In this document: in pieces, positions 733 to 5,412 of the stretch
Position numbering within the stretch: position 1 is the stretch's first letter
Layout of the letters: the number at the start of each line of letters is the position of its first letter
Source: Okeania sp.
Lineage (GTDB): Bacteria; Cyanobacteriota; Cyanobacteriia; Cyanobacteriales; Microcoleaceae
Direction: 5' to 3'
Length of the DNA stretch: 5,412 nt
Assembly: GCF_035285525.1 (NCBI RefSeq)
Contig: NZ_JAYKGW010000191.1
Location: forward strand, 1-5,412
Translations under genes and position numbers: made by a program
Notes under the pieces: model-generated
Told to the model about the DNA's origin: nothing
Database searches by the model: none
Seen by the model: only the letters and a program-made list of their open reading frames with translations

Positions 733-2241
733 TTGAGTAATTTATTTTTACAAGCGGAATATTTTGAACGTATATTCAAAGAAAATCTAAAAATAGAGAC
801 TTATTCACAATCAATAGAAAGTCTATTTAGCGATCGCTTTTTAAGGCGTATTGATTATAAACCTTACTATCAAAGGAATTATGTTTGGGATGATGATAAA
901 GCTTCATATTTTATTGAAAGTATACTTCTAGGAACAGAAATACCTCCTTTAATATTCTTCAAGAATGGAGAACGAACAGAAGTTATTGATGGCAGGCAAA
1001 GATTTGAAACAATAGAAAGATTTAAGAATAGTAAATTTCAATTAACTAAAAAAGGTTTATTTGCTTTAAAACAACTCTCCAAAAATACATACAAAACCAT
1101 TTTTGATAATAAAGAAACTACTAGCATAATAGATTTGTTTTTAGAGGCAAAAATCAGAATAGTTGAATTTGCAATTGTTAATGAAACAAGGTTAAACTCT
1201 GTATTAGAAGATAAAATAAAAAAAGAAATATTTGCTAGATATAATTCTGGTATAACGCCTTTAAAGGCACCAGAAATTGACAATGCTGTTTATGATACCG
1301 ATCCAATTTATCAGTATTTTAAAAATCGTCTGAGGCAAGACCCAGATTTTGAACAATTAATGTATGATTTGTTCTTTAAGCCAAATAAGAATAGCACTAA
1401 AGAGAAAGATAGAGGAAAAATTTTACAATTTATTAGAAAAAATTTAGTCTTGAAAATGTTTCCGATTAAGTACTATTCTCGGAGTAATAATAGGACAGAA
1501 ACTTTAGGAAAATTATTTGAACATTTATCAGATAAAATTTCTGAACTAGAGGTAGAGCGACTATGTGAATCATTTATTGATAAAGTTAAAATTGTAGAAT
1601 CATTCAGGCAAATCTTTATAAGACTAAACTTAAAGCACAATAGGTTAATTTTTGAATGTTTATTATGGAGCCTACTAATCTTAGAAAATGAAAATGTGAA
1701 TTTATTGAAACTAAAACACAAGAGTTTACTAGATAAAATCAGTAAAAAAATATCAAATAACTTCCAAGAATATTTTGAAGAACAGACGATATTTTATAAG
1801 GCAATACAGGAGAGATATACTTTTACAGCGAAGTTATTTGAAGAAGAGTTTAAAATTAATTTAGAAGTCTATTATGCAGGAAGTGATGAAAAAAGAAAAG
1901 AACTGAGTAAACTACGACAAACAGATGATGAAGATACTATTACTAAACTTAACGAGCTTAAAGATTTAAGAGTAACTAAGCCAGAACCATCGCGAAATTC
2001 AATAGATGATATAACACGATTGATGGAACGTAAGAAATTTTTAGTTAGACCTTCTTATCAGAGATCGGAAGTAACTAATTTGTCTAAGGCATCCGCTATT
2101 ATAGAAAGTATTTTATTAGGTATTAATTTACCACCTATTTTTATCTTTAAACGTTCAGATGGAATTTCTGAAGTTATTGATGGTCAGCAAAGACTTTTAA
2201 CAATATTAGGATACCTGGGGAAAGAATATGTTGATGAATAA
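733..2241 (+). CDS. DUF262 (GmrS/ParB-like) domain protein: one complete DUF262 module, a helical region, and the N-terminal half of a second DUF262 module; ends at a premature-looking TAA
   Basis: Module A has YKPYYQRNYVW (approx nt 856-888), IESILLGTEIPPLIFF, VIDGRQR (DGRQR at 988-1002) and FARYNSGITPLKAPEIDNA (from nt 1231). Module B starts with VRPSYQRSEV, IESILLGINLPPIFIF and VIDGQQR (DGQQR at 2179-2193), 15 codons before the TAA at 2239-2241. These are the hallmark DUF262 motifs of GmrSD, BrxU and SspE-type proteins. Confidence 0.85.
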   Translation: MSNLFLQAEYFERIFKENLKIETYSQSIESLFSDRFLRRIDYKPYYQRNYVWDDDKASYFIESILLGTEIPPLIFFKNGERTEVIDGRQRFETIERFKNSKFQLTKKGLFALKQLSKNTYKTIFDNKETTSIIDLFLEAKIRIVEFAIVNETRLNSVLEDKIKKEIFARYNSGITPLKAPEIDNAVYDTDPIYQYFKNRLRQDPDFEQLMYDLFFKPNKNSTKEKDRGKILQFIRKNLVLKMFPIKYYSRSNNRTETLGKLFEHLSDKISELEVERLCESFIDKVKIVESFRQIFIRLNLKHNRLIFECLLWSLLILENENVNLLKLKHKSLLDKISKKISNNFQEYFEEQTIFYKAIQERYTFTAKLFEEEFKINLEVYYAGSDEKRKELSKLRQTDDEDTITKLNELKDLRVTKPEPSRNSIDDITRLMERKKFLVRPSYQRSEVTNLSKASAIIESILLGINLPPIFIFKRSDGISEVIDGQQRLLTILGYLGKEYVDE

Positions 2242-2475
2242 AATAAGAAATGTAGCACAAAAAAATCAAATTTTGCCCTGAAAAATTTACGGATTCTTAA
2301 GGAATTAAAAAATAAAAAATTCCAGGATTTAGAAGTTGCATTACAAGACAAAATATTAGATTTTCAATTATTTGTTGTTGAGATAGAAGAAAGTCTAAAT
2401 CTAGAATTTAATCCAGTAGACTTATTTGTTAGATTAAATAATAAGCCTTATCCTATTAAAGAAAATTCTTTTGAA

Positions 2476-3339
2476 ATGTGGAACTCTTGGGCTGAACGGG
2501 AAGTAATTACAAAAATTAAAGACAATGTTAATGAATATCGAGAATGGTTTCATCTAAAATTAGCCAAAGACCTTGACCGGATGGAAAATGAGGAATTATA
2601 TACATCTTTAGTATATTTTGAGTTTAAACAGCTTCAAGAACAAAACATAGAAAAAATTGTCAAAATATATAAACAAAATAATAGGATTAATGCCAGATTA
2701 GCGCCAATAAAAGGGGATATTAGTTCGGTATTGACAAAAGTTTCTGAACGTCAGGAAGATAAGGAACTATTTATGAATAGTATTATAAAGGTGGAAAAAT
2801 TTATCTCAAAAGTAAAATGTGTGTTGCTTGATGAAGATAAAGATAAAAATCACCTAGATATATATTTAAAAAATGAATTAGATTCTATCTATAAAGCTCG
2901 CAAGGAAAATCGTTATTTTAGAAGAACTAAACAAGATTTTTATATACTCTGGTATATACTAAATCCTCTGAATGATGAAATGCTAAGATATCATAGAAAA
3001 ACAATTAAAAAGGAACTAAAAAATTTATTCTATAAAATGAAAAATAGTGAAAATAGTAACTATGATGAACATAAATTTAAAAAAGAAATAGAAAAATTTC
3101 AAAATAAGTATAAGCAAGATAAAAGAAAGATAAAATTATCTGATTCAGAGAAGGAAATGTTAATCAAAAAACAAGGAAATAGATGCCCTATATCTGGAGA
3201 CCCTCTGTTTATGGGAGATGAAATAGAAGTAGATCATAAAAAACCATTAGCTATAGGAGGCTTAGATTCTATTGATAATTTACAAATTACTCATAAAAAC
3301 GCAAATAGGAGAAAAGGTACAAAATATAATAATTCTTAA
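2476..3339 (+). CDS. HNH endonuclease-domain protein as drawn from the first ATG; more likely the C-terminal part of the interrupted 733-3339 gene, with coding sense already present from 2242
   Basis: The C-terminus reads RCPISGDPLFMGDEIEVDHKKPLAIGGLDSIDNLQITHKNANRRKG (nt 3184-3318), an HNH/HNN His-Me finger (DH at 3232-3237, then N, then N). It is in the same frame as 733-2241. nt 2242-2475 are stop-free in that frame and encode the missing half of DUF262 module B (FALKNLRILKEL...DLFVRLNNKPYPIKENSFEMWNS). That stretch has no in-frame ATG, GTG or TTG. Confidence 0.8.
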   Translation: MWNSWAEREVITKIKDNVNEYREWFHLKLAKDLDRMENEELYTSLVYFEFKQLQEQNIEKIVKIYKQNNRINARLAPIKGDISSVLTKVSERQEDKELFMNSIIKVEKFISKVKCVLLDEDKDKNHLDIYLKNELDSIYKARKENRYFRRTKQDFYILWYILNPLNDEMLRYHRKTIKKELKNLFYKMKNSENSNYDEHKFKKEIEKFQNKYKQDKRKIKLSDSEKEMLIKKQGNRCPISGDPLFMGDEIEVDHKKPLAIGGLDSIDNLQITHKNANRRKGTKYNNS

Positions 3340-3344
3340 GTAGC

Positions 3345-3372
3345 TTGACGTGAATAAACGTCACTATATAAA
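3345..3372 (+). promoter_or_regulatory. sigma70-like promoter candidate (TTGACG, 16 nt, TATAAA) overlapping a 6-bp hairpin
   Basis: TTGACG is at 3345-3350 and TATAAA at 3367-3372, 16 nt apart. TGACGT (3346-3351) and ACGTCA (3358-3363) form an inverted repeat with a 6-nt loop. The hairpin could instead be a weak stem after the HNH gene stop at 3337-3339, but no T-tract follows it. Confidence 0.25.
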
Positions 3373-3700
3373 AAATGTTAAAGCAGTTAAAAGACTTGAA
3401 ATTGCTATCCTGACGGAATGCTGCGCAAACCTTCCACTCCGTTACACTCGCTGCGGACGTACTTGTAAATTTTTTTACCTATTGCCTCTCTCCACTAGGA
3501 AATTAATTCTGCATAACTACTTAGGGCTTGCTGATTAAAGATAAAAGCCTTTACAGATAAATCTTTTAGCGTTTTTAAGTAGGTCAAAAGTACCAGCTTT
3601 TAAGTCTTTAAAGCTAAAAAATCTAGGATATTCAGCTAATTATGGGAGAAAATCCAGGGATAATTCTTTGGACTACCTCTTCTGTAATTCTTATTCCTCC

Positions 3701-3723
3701 TGGATTCTGGATTCTGGATTCTG
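3701..3723. repeat. Heptanucleotide tandem repeat (TGGATTC)x3 plus a partial unit
   Basis: The direct reading is tggattc tggattc tggattc tg at 3701-3723. It is flanked by tcctcc on both sides (approx 3695-3700 and 3726-3731). Confidence 0.85.
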
Positions 3724-3772
3724 ACTCCTCCATCTACCATTCATACTTTTTCAGCAAACCCTACTTATAGTT

Positions 3773-3781
3773 TGTTATAAT
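3773..3781 (+). promoter_or_regulatory. Extended -10 element (TGtTATAAT) upstream of gor
   Basis: TG at 3773-3774, one nt, then TATAAT at 3776-3781, 42 nt before ATG 3824. A weak SD-like AAGGA lies at 3810-3814. I found no good -35 element. Confidence 0.3.
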
Positions 3782-3823
3782 TTTCTTAACAAAATCTTTA
3801 GAGCAGTTCAAGGATATTAAATT

Positions 3824-5167
3824 ATGGCATACGATTATGATTTATTTGTTATAGGTGCAGGTTCAGGAGGGTTAGCATCTTCAAAAAGAGCAGCATCTTA
3901 TGGAGCAAAAGTAGCGATCGCTGAAAATGATTTAGTTGGAGGAACCTGCGTCATTAGAGGATGTGTGCCTAAAAAATTGATGGTTTATGGTTCTAGATTT
4001 TCTCACTTTTATAAAGATGCGGTAGGTTATGGTTGGAGTGAAGTAGAACCAAGTTTTGATTTTCATAAATTATTAGATGCTGTCAATACAGAAGTTTTGC
4101 GGTTGAGTAAGCTACATATTAGTTTTCTAGAAAAAGCAGGGGTAGAATTAATAGAGGGATATGCTAAATTTATTGACAACCATACTGTAGAAGTAGGCGA
4201 TCGCCAAATTACAGCAGATAAAATTTTAATTGCTGTTGGTGGTAAACCAGAGAAAATAAATATTCCGGGAATTGAACATACTATTACTTCCCGTGAAATG
4301 TTCCACCTCAAGGAGCATCCCAAAAGAATGGCAGTTTGGGGAGGCGGTTATATCGGTGTCGAATTTGCTGGAATAATGAACGGACTTGGTACCGAAGTTA
4401 CTCAAATTATTCGCCGAGATTCAATTTTGCGGGGTTTTGATGCAGATATTTGTAGCAATATTCAGGAAGGAATGGTAAAACATGGCATTAATTTCCGCAC
4501 CAGAACTAATGTAGAAAAAATTGAGAAAGTACCAGAAGGATTAAAAGTTCACCTGAGTGGAGAAAACGCTGAACCTTTAATTGTCGATACATTCCTTTGT
4601 GCAACTGGTCGTAAACCAAACTTAGCAGGTTTAAATCTAGAAAATGCTGGTGTCGAAACAATCAATGGTGCAGTTGCCGTGAGTAATAACTGTCGCACAA
4701 CTCAACCAAATATTTATGCTGTCGGAGACTGTATAGATAAAGCAAATTTGACTCCAGTTGCTATTGCTCAAGGTCGCGCTTTTGCTGATACAGAATTTGG
4801 TAATATTCCTAGAGCTATTTCTCTAGAAAATATTCCAACTGCTATTTTCTCCAACCCAGAAGGAGGAACGGTAGGTTTGTCAGAAGCAGAAGCACGAGAA
4901 AAATTTGGTGACTCTGTTAAATGTTACCATGCCAAGTTTCGCCCCATGTACCACACCTTCACAGGTGCGGAAGAGAAAGTCATGGTGAAATTAGTGGTTG
5001 AAACTAATACTGACAAAGTTTTAGGAGTACATATAGTTGGTAAAGATGCTGGTGAGATTATTCAAGGAATGGCGATCGCTGTAAATATGGGAGCAACCAA
5101 AGCAGAGTTTGACCGAACCGTTGGTATTCATCCTTCTACTGCAGAAGAGTTTGTGACTTTACGTTAA
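3824..5167 (+). CDS. gor: Glutathione-disulfide reductase (FAD/NAD(P)H pyridine-nucleotide disulfide oxidoreductase, class I)
   Basis: 447 aa. The N-terminal FAD fold is YDYDLFVIGAGSGG. The redox-active disulfide is GGTCVIRGCVPKK (Cys codons at 3947 and 3962). The NADPH fold is VWGGGYIGVEFAG followed by RRDSILRGFD. The second FAD motif is IYAVGDC. The C-terminal His-Glu motif GIHPSTAEEFVTLR is diagnostic of glutathione reductases. Three HIP1 sites lie inside the gene. Confidence 0.93.
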   Translation: MAYDYDLFVIGAGSGGLASSKRAASYGAKVAIAENDLVGGTCVIRGCVPKKLMVYGSRFSHFYKDAVGYGWSEVEPSFDFHKLLDAVNTEVLRLSKLHISFLEKAGVELIEGYAKFIDNHTVEVGDRQITADKILIAVGGKPEKINIPGIEHTITSREMFHLKEHPKRMAVWGGGYIGVEFAGIMNGLGTEVTQIIRRDSILRGFDADICSNIQEGMVKHGINFRTRTNVEKIEKVPEGLKVHLSGENAEPLIVDTFLCATGRKPNLAGLNLENAGVETINGAVAVSNNCRTTQPNIYAVGDCIDKANLTPVAIAQGRAFADTEFGNIPRAISLENIPTAIFSNPEGGTVGLSEAEAREKFGDSVKCYHAKFRPMYHTFTGAEEKVMVKLVVETNTDKVLGVHIVGKDAGEIIQGMAIAVNMGATKAEFDRTVGIHPSTAEEFVTLR

Positions 5168-5173
5168 CTTAAG

Positions 5174-5218
5174 AAACCCGCCCCTACTGTTGATAAAAAA
5201 TGCTGTAGGGGCGGGTTT
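5174..5218 (+). terminator. Perfect 14-bp stem-loop 7 nt after the gor stop; likely terminator or mRNA-stabilising REP-like hairpin
   Basis: AAACCCGCCCCTAC (5174-5187) pairs with GTAGGGGCGGGTTT (5205-5218) around a 17-nt loop. The only U residues are the three closing the stem, so it is not a textbook intrinsic terminator. Confidence 0.55.
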
Positions 5219-5295
5219 GAACAGAGATTTATCTGCTGACTCTCAGATTTATGTAAACCCGCCATCATAGAAGGTGTTAGCTGTGTCTGTTTAAT

Positions 5296-5330
5296 GGTTT
5301 ATATCATATCATTGGGGGCGGGTTTATCTA
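5296..5330 (+). repeat. 35-nt direct repeat, copy 1 (ggtttatatcatatcattgggggcgggtttatcta)
   Basis: Identical by eye to 5378-5412, giving an 82-nt period. Confidence 0.85.
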
Positions 5331-5377
5331 AAAATTAGATGAGTTGTTAATTTAACTGAGAAACCCGCCCCTACTTA

Positions 5378-5412
5378 GGTTTATATCATATCATTGGGGG
5401 CGGGTTTATCTA
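5378..5412 (+). repeat. 35-nt direct repeat, copy 2; ends exactly at the window edge
   Basis: Identical to 5296-5330. The array may continue beyond the window. Confidence 0.85.

Follow-up and report, generated by a model that had tools for sequence, protein, structure and literature searches.

An interrupted Okeania gene for a putative nuclease with tandem DUF262 modules and a C-terminal HNH domain, and the widespread, probably defensive family to which it belongs

The DNA analysed here, hereafter the window, is 5,412 bp long and makes up an entire contig of an assembly of Okeania sp., a marine filamentous cyanobacterium placed in the Microcoleaceae, Oscillatoriales. Its main feature is a chromosomal gene on the forward strand, at 733-3339, for a putative nuclease in which two DUF262 modules are followed by an HNH domain. 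The gene is interrupted by one in-frame stop. A codon count bears out the single frame described in the original prediction, which had been made from the DNA letters alone: there are 869 codons, of which 867 are sense codons, one is an internal TAA and the last is the terminal stop at 3337-3339. The parts of the gene are listed here, with homologous proteins and loci cited by our own P and L numbers.

733-3339, + strand: interrupted tandem-DUF262 HNH nuclease gene, its product 84-89% identical to Dapis and Okeania proteins
717-735, + strand: ribosome binding site AAGGAG (717-722) and TTG start codon (733-735), kept together with their spacer in the intact orthologues at L001 and L002
778-1845, + strand: module 1, an NsnA-like ParB-DUF262 domain at about aa 29-185 (QR 47-48, DGRQR 86-90, FxRYN 167-171) and a helical 'ParBDB'-like domain at about aa 190-371, delimited with the PADLOC NsnA profile and Pfam GmrSD_N (aa 29-185)
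1846-1995, + strand: inter-module linker, about aa 372-421, partly modelled with low confidence
1996-3105, + strand: module 2, a second NsnA-like ParB-DUF262 domain (QR 443-444, DGQQR 483-487, FxRLN 565-569) and a helical domain at about aa 590-791, delimited with the PADLOC NsnA profile, the second GmrSD_N stretch and hhalign
2239-2241, + strand: in-frame TAA breaking the DUF262 domain of module 2; GAA in L001, L002 and L003
3190-3324, + strand: C-terminal HNH (beta-beta-alpha-Me) domain with D834-H835, N849 and N858, recognised by Pfam, structure modelling and Foldseek

Two complete sets of DUF262 motifs can be read in the translation, and each of the motifs that had been quoted, including those of the HNH domain, was located there. 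The first set comprises YQRNYVW (aa 46-52, nt 868-888), IESILLG (aa 61-67), DGRQR (nt 988-1002) and FARYNSG (aa 167-173), the second YQRSEV (aa 442-447), IESILLG (aa 457-463), DGQQR (nt 2179-2193) and FVRLNNKPYP (aa 565-574). Both contain the QR, DGxQR and FxxxN motifs of the DUF262/GmrS domain of the GmrSD family (Machnicka et al. 2015). The Pfam profile GmrSD_N/DUF262 (PF03235) matches the protein with an E-value of 3.3e-20 and a score of 73.5 bits (cut-off 33.2), and does so in two separate stretches, as the proposal of two such domains had led one to expect. Taken with the homology of the two halves and the HNH matches described below, this lies far outside what chance would produce.

The N- and C-terminal halves of the protein are homologous to one another, both by blastp (E = 6e-18, 27% identity) and by hhalign on the split family alignment (probability 99.0%, E = 4e-18, 319 columns). 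This homology covers the DUF262 and helical parts alike, the modules being 25-27% identical. Each half also matches the PADLOC profile of NsnA, the sensor subunit of Menshen, in which a ParB-DUF262 domain precedes a helical domain, named 'ParBDB', that binds DNA (Li et al. 2025, PMC12065111). The match of aa 16-371 has an E-value of 2.9e-56 and spans profile positions 41-381 of 385; that of the C-terminal half alone has an E-value of 1.8e-26 and spans positions 51-363 of 385. The protein consists, then, of a ParB-DUF262 plus helical unit present twice, with the HNH domain behind.

For a full-length AlphaFold2 (AF2) model we took P0001, an intact orthologue with 85% identity to the window protein, and an alignment of 77 sequences. 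Its mean predicted local distance difference test score (pLDDT) of 80.7 and predicted template modelling score (pTM) of 0.44 show the single domains to be confidently modelled but not their relative arrangement; within the linker, pLDDT falls below 50 at residues 396-398 and 408-416. The top fold match in the PDB according to Foldseek is BrxU (7p9k; E = 6.7e-3, probability 0.97, template modelling score about 0.2), a weak match because the domain arrangement is uncertain; next come ParB-CDP structures and the nicking enzyme Gme HNH. Of the structures with which a comparison had been suggested, BrxU thus comes first, at that E-value. When the second helical domain was compared with the PDB by Foldseek, no match was obtained.

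The nuclease is a classical HNH domain, as had been proposed. Its motifs EVDH (aa 832-835, nt 3226-3237), DNLQ (aa 848-851) and NANRRKG (aa 856-862) lie within above-threshold matches to Pfam HNH (PF01844, aa 828-863; 24.6 bits, cut-off 21.4) and HNH_4 (PF13395, aa 820-864; 24.0 bits, cut-off 22), whereas GmrSD_C/DUF1524 (PF07510) is not matched in the protein even at E<=1. The AF2 model of window-encoded aa 582-868 (287 residues, comprising the second helical domain and the HNH domain) is a single rigid unit with pLDDT 93 and pTM 0.89, in which the HNH domain is predicted to pack against the helical domain. In Foldseek searches with this C-terminal model only the HNH part finds PDB relatives, namely HNH domains of Cas9 (root mean square deviation 1.8-2.0 Å over about 65 columns, probability 1.0, E about 0.1) and further Gme HNH, EcoKMcrA and ScoMcrA. 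Sequence searches agree. Against PDB sequences, phmmer with the protein returns HNH-domain matches only (group II intron maturase and Cas9) and the family profile returns only the HNH of Cas9, neither search matching the chains of BrxU or SspE; among NCBIfam entries there is a weak, sub-threshold match to IscB owing to the HNH domain. The Cas9 and IscB matches place the nuclease in the classical Cas9/IscB type.

The original prediction did not recognise this architecture as a characterised one; it turned out not to be rare but to mark a large and highly conserved family in which intact DUF262-DUF262-HNH proteins of about 865 aa exist. The closest homologues, P0001 from Dapis sp. BLCC M229 (85% identity) and P0002 from Okeania SIO1I7 (84%), are both intact and 865 aa long. 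They are joined by P0003 (80%, 862 aa) and by P0004, a 733-aa protein of 89% identity whose locus, L003, is itself disrupted at its 5' end. A first homologue search yielded 120 clusters with at least 49% full-length identity, nearly all of about 860-900 aa and only a few short or partial (for example P0004, P0005 and P0111), from cyanobacteria, Bacteroidota, Ignavibacteriota, the PVC group and others. Their annotations go no further than 'DUF262 domain-containing', 'GmrSD restriction endonuclease domain-containing' or 'uncharacterized protein with ParB-like and HNH nuclease domain'. A pattern scan of 185,579 species genomes, sampling one genome per species, confirmed at least 251 loci; the best 80 of the 251 are the basis of the counts of taxa, interruptions and neighbours given here. 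These 80 are spread over Cyanobacteriota, Bacteroidota, Bacillota, Planctomycetota, Chloroflexota, Proteobacteria, Acidobacteriota, Thermotogota, Cloacimonadota and two DPANN archaea, with identities of 38-64% outside the Okeania/Dapis group. The archaeal homologues (L068 and L069, from Nanoarchaeia and Pacearchaeota) are full-length and 43% identical, which points to transfer between domains of life. More generally, the sparse distribution across domains, with 41-60% identity between phyla and presence in DPANN archaea, argues for horizontal transfer. COG1479, to which DUF262 corresponds, is listed among widely transferred uncharacterised genes.

Across 77 homologues with identities of 50-90%, there is no variation in the two QR motifs, DGRQR and DGQQR, FxRYN and FxRLN, or the D-H, N and N of the HNH domain. 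Neither DUF262 copy is a degenerate pseudo-domain, and selection acts on all three active sites. Searching with the family-specific C-terminal 287 aa among 1.84 billion representatives of 50% identity clusters gave 43 matches at E<=1e-30 and 109 at E<=1e-10. A phage collection contained no full-length homologue and a plasmid collection only one homologue, which is of a single-module form.

In its genomic surroundings the HNH form stands by itself. When the 809 open reading frames (ORFs) flanking the 80 loci were compared all against all, no neighbour family proved to be shared by more than eight loci, and the recurrent nearest neighbours are housekeeping genes of the syntenic Okeania/Dapis group. 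The absence of partner genes had been noted for the window, and no conserved partner was found there, in 10 annotated loci or in the 80 further loci; since there is no conserved neighbour, the HNH form would act alone. Nor are homologues conspicuously sited in defence islands. In seven other annotated contexts the neighbours differ and are mostly housekeeping genes, with an occasional VapBC, Uma2 or transposase gene. At a Scytonema locus a classical GmrSD gene lies 8 kb from the gene for the HNH form.

Relatives with other architectures are more informative about function. In P0133 a Schlafen/AlbA_2 domain follows the HNH domain, and in P0137 treble-clef zinc fingers are added at the N terminus. 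In P0193 and P0227 (about 970-1030 aa) the HNH domain is replaced by a C-terminal domain of about 200 aa with weak matches, at E about 1e-2 to 1e-3, to type I/type II restriction specificity (target recognition domain, TRD) subunits, an identity that should be read as a lead rather than a finding. Single-module DUF262-HNH proteins of 520-626 aa are colinear with residues from about 233/300 to 863 at 37-47% identity. One of them, WP_016766023.1, is a complete 567-aa coding sequence on plasmid pNCT2_2 of Priestia megaterium and is annotated 'HNH endonuclease'.

A further group of tandem-DUF262 relatives, 764-799 aa long, has no nuclease domain and is encoded next to tightly coupled partner genes. 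In four loci, from Desulfospira, Anammoxibacter, Pseudoalteromonas and one unclassified bacterium, a gene for a putAbiC membrane protein (PF16872, E = 1.2e-19) lies at most about 24 nt upstream. In Petrotogaceae, Anaerolineaceae and Nitrosomonas a Schlafen/AlbA_2 gene adjoins instead.

L071, L085, L092 and L093 (about 4500-6000): HNH-less relative with putAbiC partner
L054, L062 and L065: HNH-less relative with Schlafen/AlbA_2 partner

The same pairing in unrelated phyla argues for a functional link, and these pairs look like candidate two-gene defence systems. No description of either kind of pair turned up in the literature on DUF262 architectures, which was not searched for the pairs specifically. 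In one Cyclobacteriaceae genome (L083, 8517-10085) the HNH-less gene is followed by an NsnB-like AAA_21/AAA_15 ABC-type ATPase gene; this locus may represent a form of Menshen in which NsnA is duplicated. The upstream partners at three more HNH-less loci, L070, L079 and L081, have no Pfam match. Of the evidence from gene context, the conserved pairs speak most strongly for a tandem-DUF262 core that serves as a defence sensor and can exchange its effectors.

On balance, we favour the view that the gene encoded a stand-alone GmrSD-like defence nuclease and that the copy in the window has been inactivated. The defence role put forward in the original prediction is thus plausible for the family, with indirect support from the coupling of HNH-less relatives to AbiC-like or Schlafen/AlbA_2 genes, but not for the window copy, which is broken. 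By analogy with BrxU, SspE, GmrSD, TgvAB and GrwAB, in which DUF262 senses DNA that is foreign or modified and licenses a His-Me nuclease, a mechanism may be proposed in which the two non-identical DUF262 modules of one chain would pair as a heterodimer in one polypeptide. Nucleoside triphosphate (NTP) would be bound or hydrolysed at both DGxQR pockets while the helical domains would recognise DNA; NTP state and DNA contacts together would then license the C-terminal HNH domain to nick or cut invading, probably modified, DNA. Such an enzyme would provide a type IV-like innate defence needing neither a methyltransferase nor a partner. The intramolecular dimer is a less likely detail of this scheme.

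Several considerations weigh against a defence nuclease of this kind. Defence, NTP gating and modification dependence are all properties that we infer for this family from homology. With a full-length pTM of 0.44, the model is uninformative on whether the two DUF262 modules touch. No PDB structure was matched at E<=1e-3, and in Foldseek searches with the full-length and C-terminal models the helical domains were not matched to the middle domains of BrxU or SspE. Most neighbours of the HNH form are housekeeping genes, and VapBC, Uma2, Mrr or transposase genes turn up only occasionally; synteny within Okeania/Dapis indicates vertical inheritance for some time; and defence genes seldom reach the 50-60% identity seen here between phyla.

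These points lend some substance to the best-surviving alternative, which we nonetheless consider unlikely: that the family serves otherwise than in restriction, as an abortive-infection or toxin effector that, once triggered, acts on the cell's own DNA, as a non-defence factor in DNA transactions (repair or segregation, in the manner of ParB), or as a selfish mobile nuclease. The pairing of HNH-less relatives with AbiC-like and Schlafen/AlbA_2 proteins is typical of abortive infection and not of restriction, and a role in programmed cell death has been suggested for COG1479 fusions (Makarova et al. 2013, PMC3632139). In many genomes the HNH form is a lone gene in housekeeping surroundings, its sequence is highly conserved across phyla, and the leading fold matches include ParB CTPase structures. 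However, the characterised proteins combining DUF262 with a His-Me nuclease (GmrSD, BrxU, SspE, TgvB, GrwA and HEC-06) all attack foreign DNA in defence. A ParB-like role fits poorly with the lack of any helix-turn-helix or parS-type ParB DNA-binding domain in Pfam searches and of a ParA or SMC partner among the neighbours of the 80 loci, and a mobile nuclease with a gene that lies in neither an intron nor an intein. The family's patchy occurrence and its many pseudogenes are, moreover, typical of defence genes.

As to the state of the window copy, the TAA is codon 503 and comes immediately after ...GKEYVDE. The corresponding residue is Glu in P0001-P0004, and the GAA found in the related loci indicates that a single G->T change created the stop. 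It comes after motif II (DGQQR) and before motif III (FVRLN, 565-569) of the second DUF262 domain, so the product as written is at most 502 aa long and lacks half of module 2 and the nuclease; this 502-aa N-terminal ORF has a database entry of its own, P0005. The next in-frame ATG is at 2476, 78 codons on. Nei-Gojobori dN/dS is 0.23 between the intact orthologues at L001 and L002, and 0.33-0.37 between the window and its relatives. On the window branch downstream of the stop there are 29 nonsynonymous and 13 synonymous changes, which are small numbers. These comparisons suggest mildly relaxed selection on that branch, and the window copy is most likely a recent pseudogene. The enzyme had been expected to act alone here, which does not hold for an inactivated copy whose stop replaces a conserved GAA within the second DUF262 domain.

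A clean split into subunits like TgvA and TgvB was considered and rejected, the stop falling within a domain. Programmed read-through or recoding was likewise rejected, because a TAA stands where relatives simply have GAA and no conserved sequence surrounds it.

Less probable again than a non-restriction role is that the gene works in Okeania, either because the TAA arose by mistake in assembly or base calling or because the 502-aa piece and a restarted HNH piece cooperate like TgvAB or GrwAB. Of the 206 columns with at least 95% conservation, the window copy deviates in only 3, a number that intact homologues also show (median 2, range 0-13). This counts against inactivation, since a stop in so well-preserved a sequence could be an assembly or base-call error, and the contig does come from a metagenome-type assembly. 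The Shine-Dalgarno sequence and TTG start are intact, and two-protein DUF262 systems exist. Against this, the break between DGQQR and FxRLN destroys a domain instead of separating modules, a restart would have to await the distant ATG, all three close relatives have GAA, and the ratio of nonsynonymous to synonymous changes is raised on the window branch after the stop. Interruption is also not peculiar to this copy. A survey of the 80 other loci found 72 uninterrupted and about seven interrupted (eight of 80 were flagged, one being a self-match artefact), mostly in cyanobacteria, and the interrupted loci include the sister metagenome-assembled genome Okeania SIO2F4, where the 5' end is frameshifted. 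Decay of the tandem-DUF262 HNH gene is common in cyanobacteria. A base-call error is the less likely source of the stop, and the inactivated defence nuclease remains our preferred reading. As the copy was probably broken recently, the practical message of this particular window is modest.

The remainder of the window provides context for the gene, and two further features were identified in it.

1-700, + strand: remnants of a decayed tandem Uma2 (DUF820) array, recognised from direct repeats, a Uma2 fragment and blastn; context only
3824-5167, + strand: glutathione-disulfide reductase gene (gor), NCBIfam TIGR01424, E = 2.4e-192, above cut-off

The Uma2 remnants form direct repeats that recur about every 560 nt (1-38 matches 559-596 at 92%), carry multiple stops and frameshifts, and are 76-85% identical by blastn to the Uma2 arrays of L001, L002, L018 and L019. 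Only one fragment, the ORF at 456-593, reaches Pfam Uma2, matching its C terminus with an E-value of 1.9e-4, below the gathering score. Of the flanking Uma2 genes described in the original prediction, then, decayed remnants exist upstream (1 to about 700), while the downstream neighbour is no nuclease but glutathione reductase, a syntenic housekeeping gene also present in L001, L002 and L003. In Okeania/Dapis synteny the nuclease gene lies between a 2Fe-2S thioredoxin-like gene and glutathione reductase, with an Mrr-type gene 4-6 kb downstream. PALP (cysteine-synthase-like) and 2Fe-2S thioredoxin-like genes separate the Uma2 array from the nuclease gene in L001, L002, L003 and L019. Both are missing in the window, where the decayed array adjoins the nuclease gene, which indicates that a deletion of about 1.5 kb joined the Uma2 remnant to the upstream region of the gene. 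The guanine plus cytosine content of the nuclease gene (733-3339) is 0.25-0.30, against 0.35-0.42 in gor, a difference consistent with a foreign origin.

At the 5' end of the gene, some relatives carry repeated DNA. In Dapis and Okeania SIO2F4 the promoter-proximal region and first 130-175 nt of the nuclease gene, corresponding to about 690-865 of the window, are present as two to three tandem copies upstream of the real start (L002 7419-7872, L003 1655-2565). The L003 copies, next to an N gap, were given by Tandem Repeats Finder as 2.9 copies with a period of 308 and 87% match. The window and L001 have a single copy of this region. Slippage, recombination or an artefact of assembly could account for the additional copies.

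The stretch 3340-3823 (about 480 nt), which separates the nuclease gene from gor, has no Pfam or Rfam match. It shows weak likeness (68-71%) to inverted intergenic stretches at L001 4884-5142 and L019 10651-10822, and is probably a dispersed repeat. Downstream of gor, 5174-5412 holds short GC-rich palindromic repeats (AAACCCGCCCCTAC / GTAGGGGCGGGTTT) and an exact 35-nt direct repeat (5296-5330 = 5378-5412); this cluster looks like a cyanobacterial intergenic repeat element. Over the whole window an Rfam scan gave no match at E<=1 and Tandem Repeats Finder no tandem repeats, and scans for promoter and terminator consensus sequences did no better than on shuffled sequence and were not used.

Among the known systems, Menshen can be set aside at once: that the window protein is the NsnA sensor subunit of NsnABC is highly improbable and was rejected since NsnB and NsnC are lacking, for although NsnA is the best PADLOC match for both modules, no NsnB-like ABC ATPase or NsnC-like gene occurs in the window, at the 10 annotated loci or in the neighbour clusters of the 80 loci, the protein carries its own nuclease, and only one HNH-less relative (L083) has an NsnB-like ATPase gene next to it. 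The likeness is confined to the modules, both of which match the NsnA profile nearly end to end. Menshen is an operon with an NsnB ATPase and an NsnC effector, both absent here, whereas here the module is duplicated and joined to its own nuclease. The single-module DUF262-HNH proteins, likewise uncharacterised, share the second module and the HNH domain and are without the first DUF262 domain.

With the GmrSD-family type IV enzymes (Eco94GmrSD, BrxU, SspE and HEC-06) the tandem-DUF262 HNH protein shares an N-terminal DUF262 domain of ParB/Srx fold, a helical region and a C-terminal His-Me nuclease in one chain, as well as a stand-alone gene. In BrxU, SspE and GmrSD, whose targets are modified phage DNAs, the DUF262 domain binds and hydrolyses NTPs and controls the His-Me nuclease at the C terminus. 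The GmrSD-family enzymes differ in having one DUF262 plus helical module where the present protein has two in tandem, and in having DUF1524 (PF07510) where it has a classical HNH domain (PF01844/PF13395). One defining feature of the GmrSD family, at the C terminus, is therefore missing because there is no DUF1524. The known enzymes of this group act as homodimers, and a pseudo-heterodimer within one chain might take their place here. The original prediction made much of the swap to an HNH effector. The HNH domain is indeed present, but the change is modest because DUF1524 is itself a His-Me finger. It also held the architecture to be uncharacterised. We found no paper describing or testing a DUF262-DUF262-HNH single chain, although Makarova et al. 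(2013, PMC3632139) had already mentioned, in a general way, fusions of COG1479/DUF262 to HNH-type nucleases. The family is real, widespread and, as far as our literature searches show, undescribed as a single chain, but it embodies no new principle.

The wider interest of the family lies in the recurrence of DUF262/ParB-like sensors in GmrSD, BrxU, SspE, Menshen, Dazbog, PD-T4-2, TgvAB and GrwAB. Here two ParB-like modules and a Cas9-type HNH domain are combined in one well-conserved polypeptide found from cyanobacteria to DPANN archaea, with relatives that have Abi-type partners in place of the nuclease. If active, it would be a compact single-gene defence or type IV restriction enzyme and a tractable model of asymmetric DUF262 pairing.

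The closest functional analogues, by what has been published on them, would be TgvAB of the Vibrio cholerae island VPI-2 (PMC11014532; bioRxiv 10.1101/2024.04.04.588119) and GrwAB of the WASA lineage (PMC12137116). In each, two different DUF262 proteins are both required, and mutating either DGQQR motif abolishes defence (PMC11014532, PMC12137116). The comparison, made with published descriptions and not by sequence, shows two different DUF262 units with intact DGxQR and one His-Me nuclease on both sides. The duplicated module stressed in the original prediction thus exists, but a need for two DUF262 units was already known in trans. TgvAB and GrwAB are two separate, co-required genes with DUF1524, as against one fused ORF with HNH; TgvAB is moreover embedded in a type I restriction-modification locus, whereas the HNH form is solitary. 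It is conceivable, though we hold it only tentatively, that tandem-DUF262 proteins form a distinct, unnamed defence family in which an intramolecular NTP-gated clamp or sensor of ParB type is served by interchangeable effectors: HNH in cis, AbiC-like or Schlafen/AlbA_2 proteins in trans, an NsnB-like ATPase, or the TRD-like C-terminal domain. The HNH form would then be the single-chain counterpart of the two-protein requirement of TgvAB and GrwAB, and would offer a simpler system in which to ask why two DUF262 units are needed.

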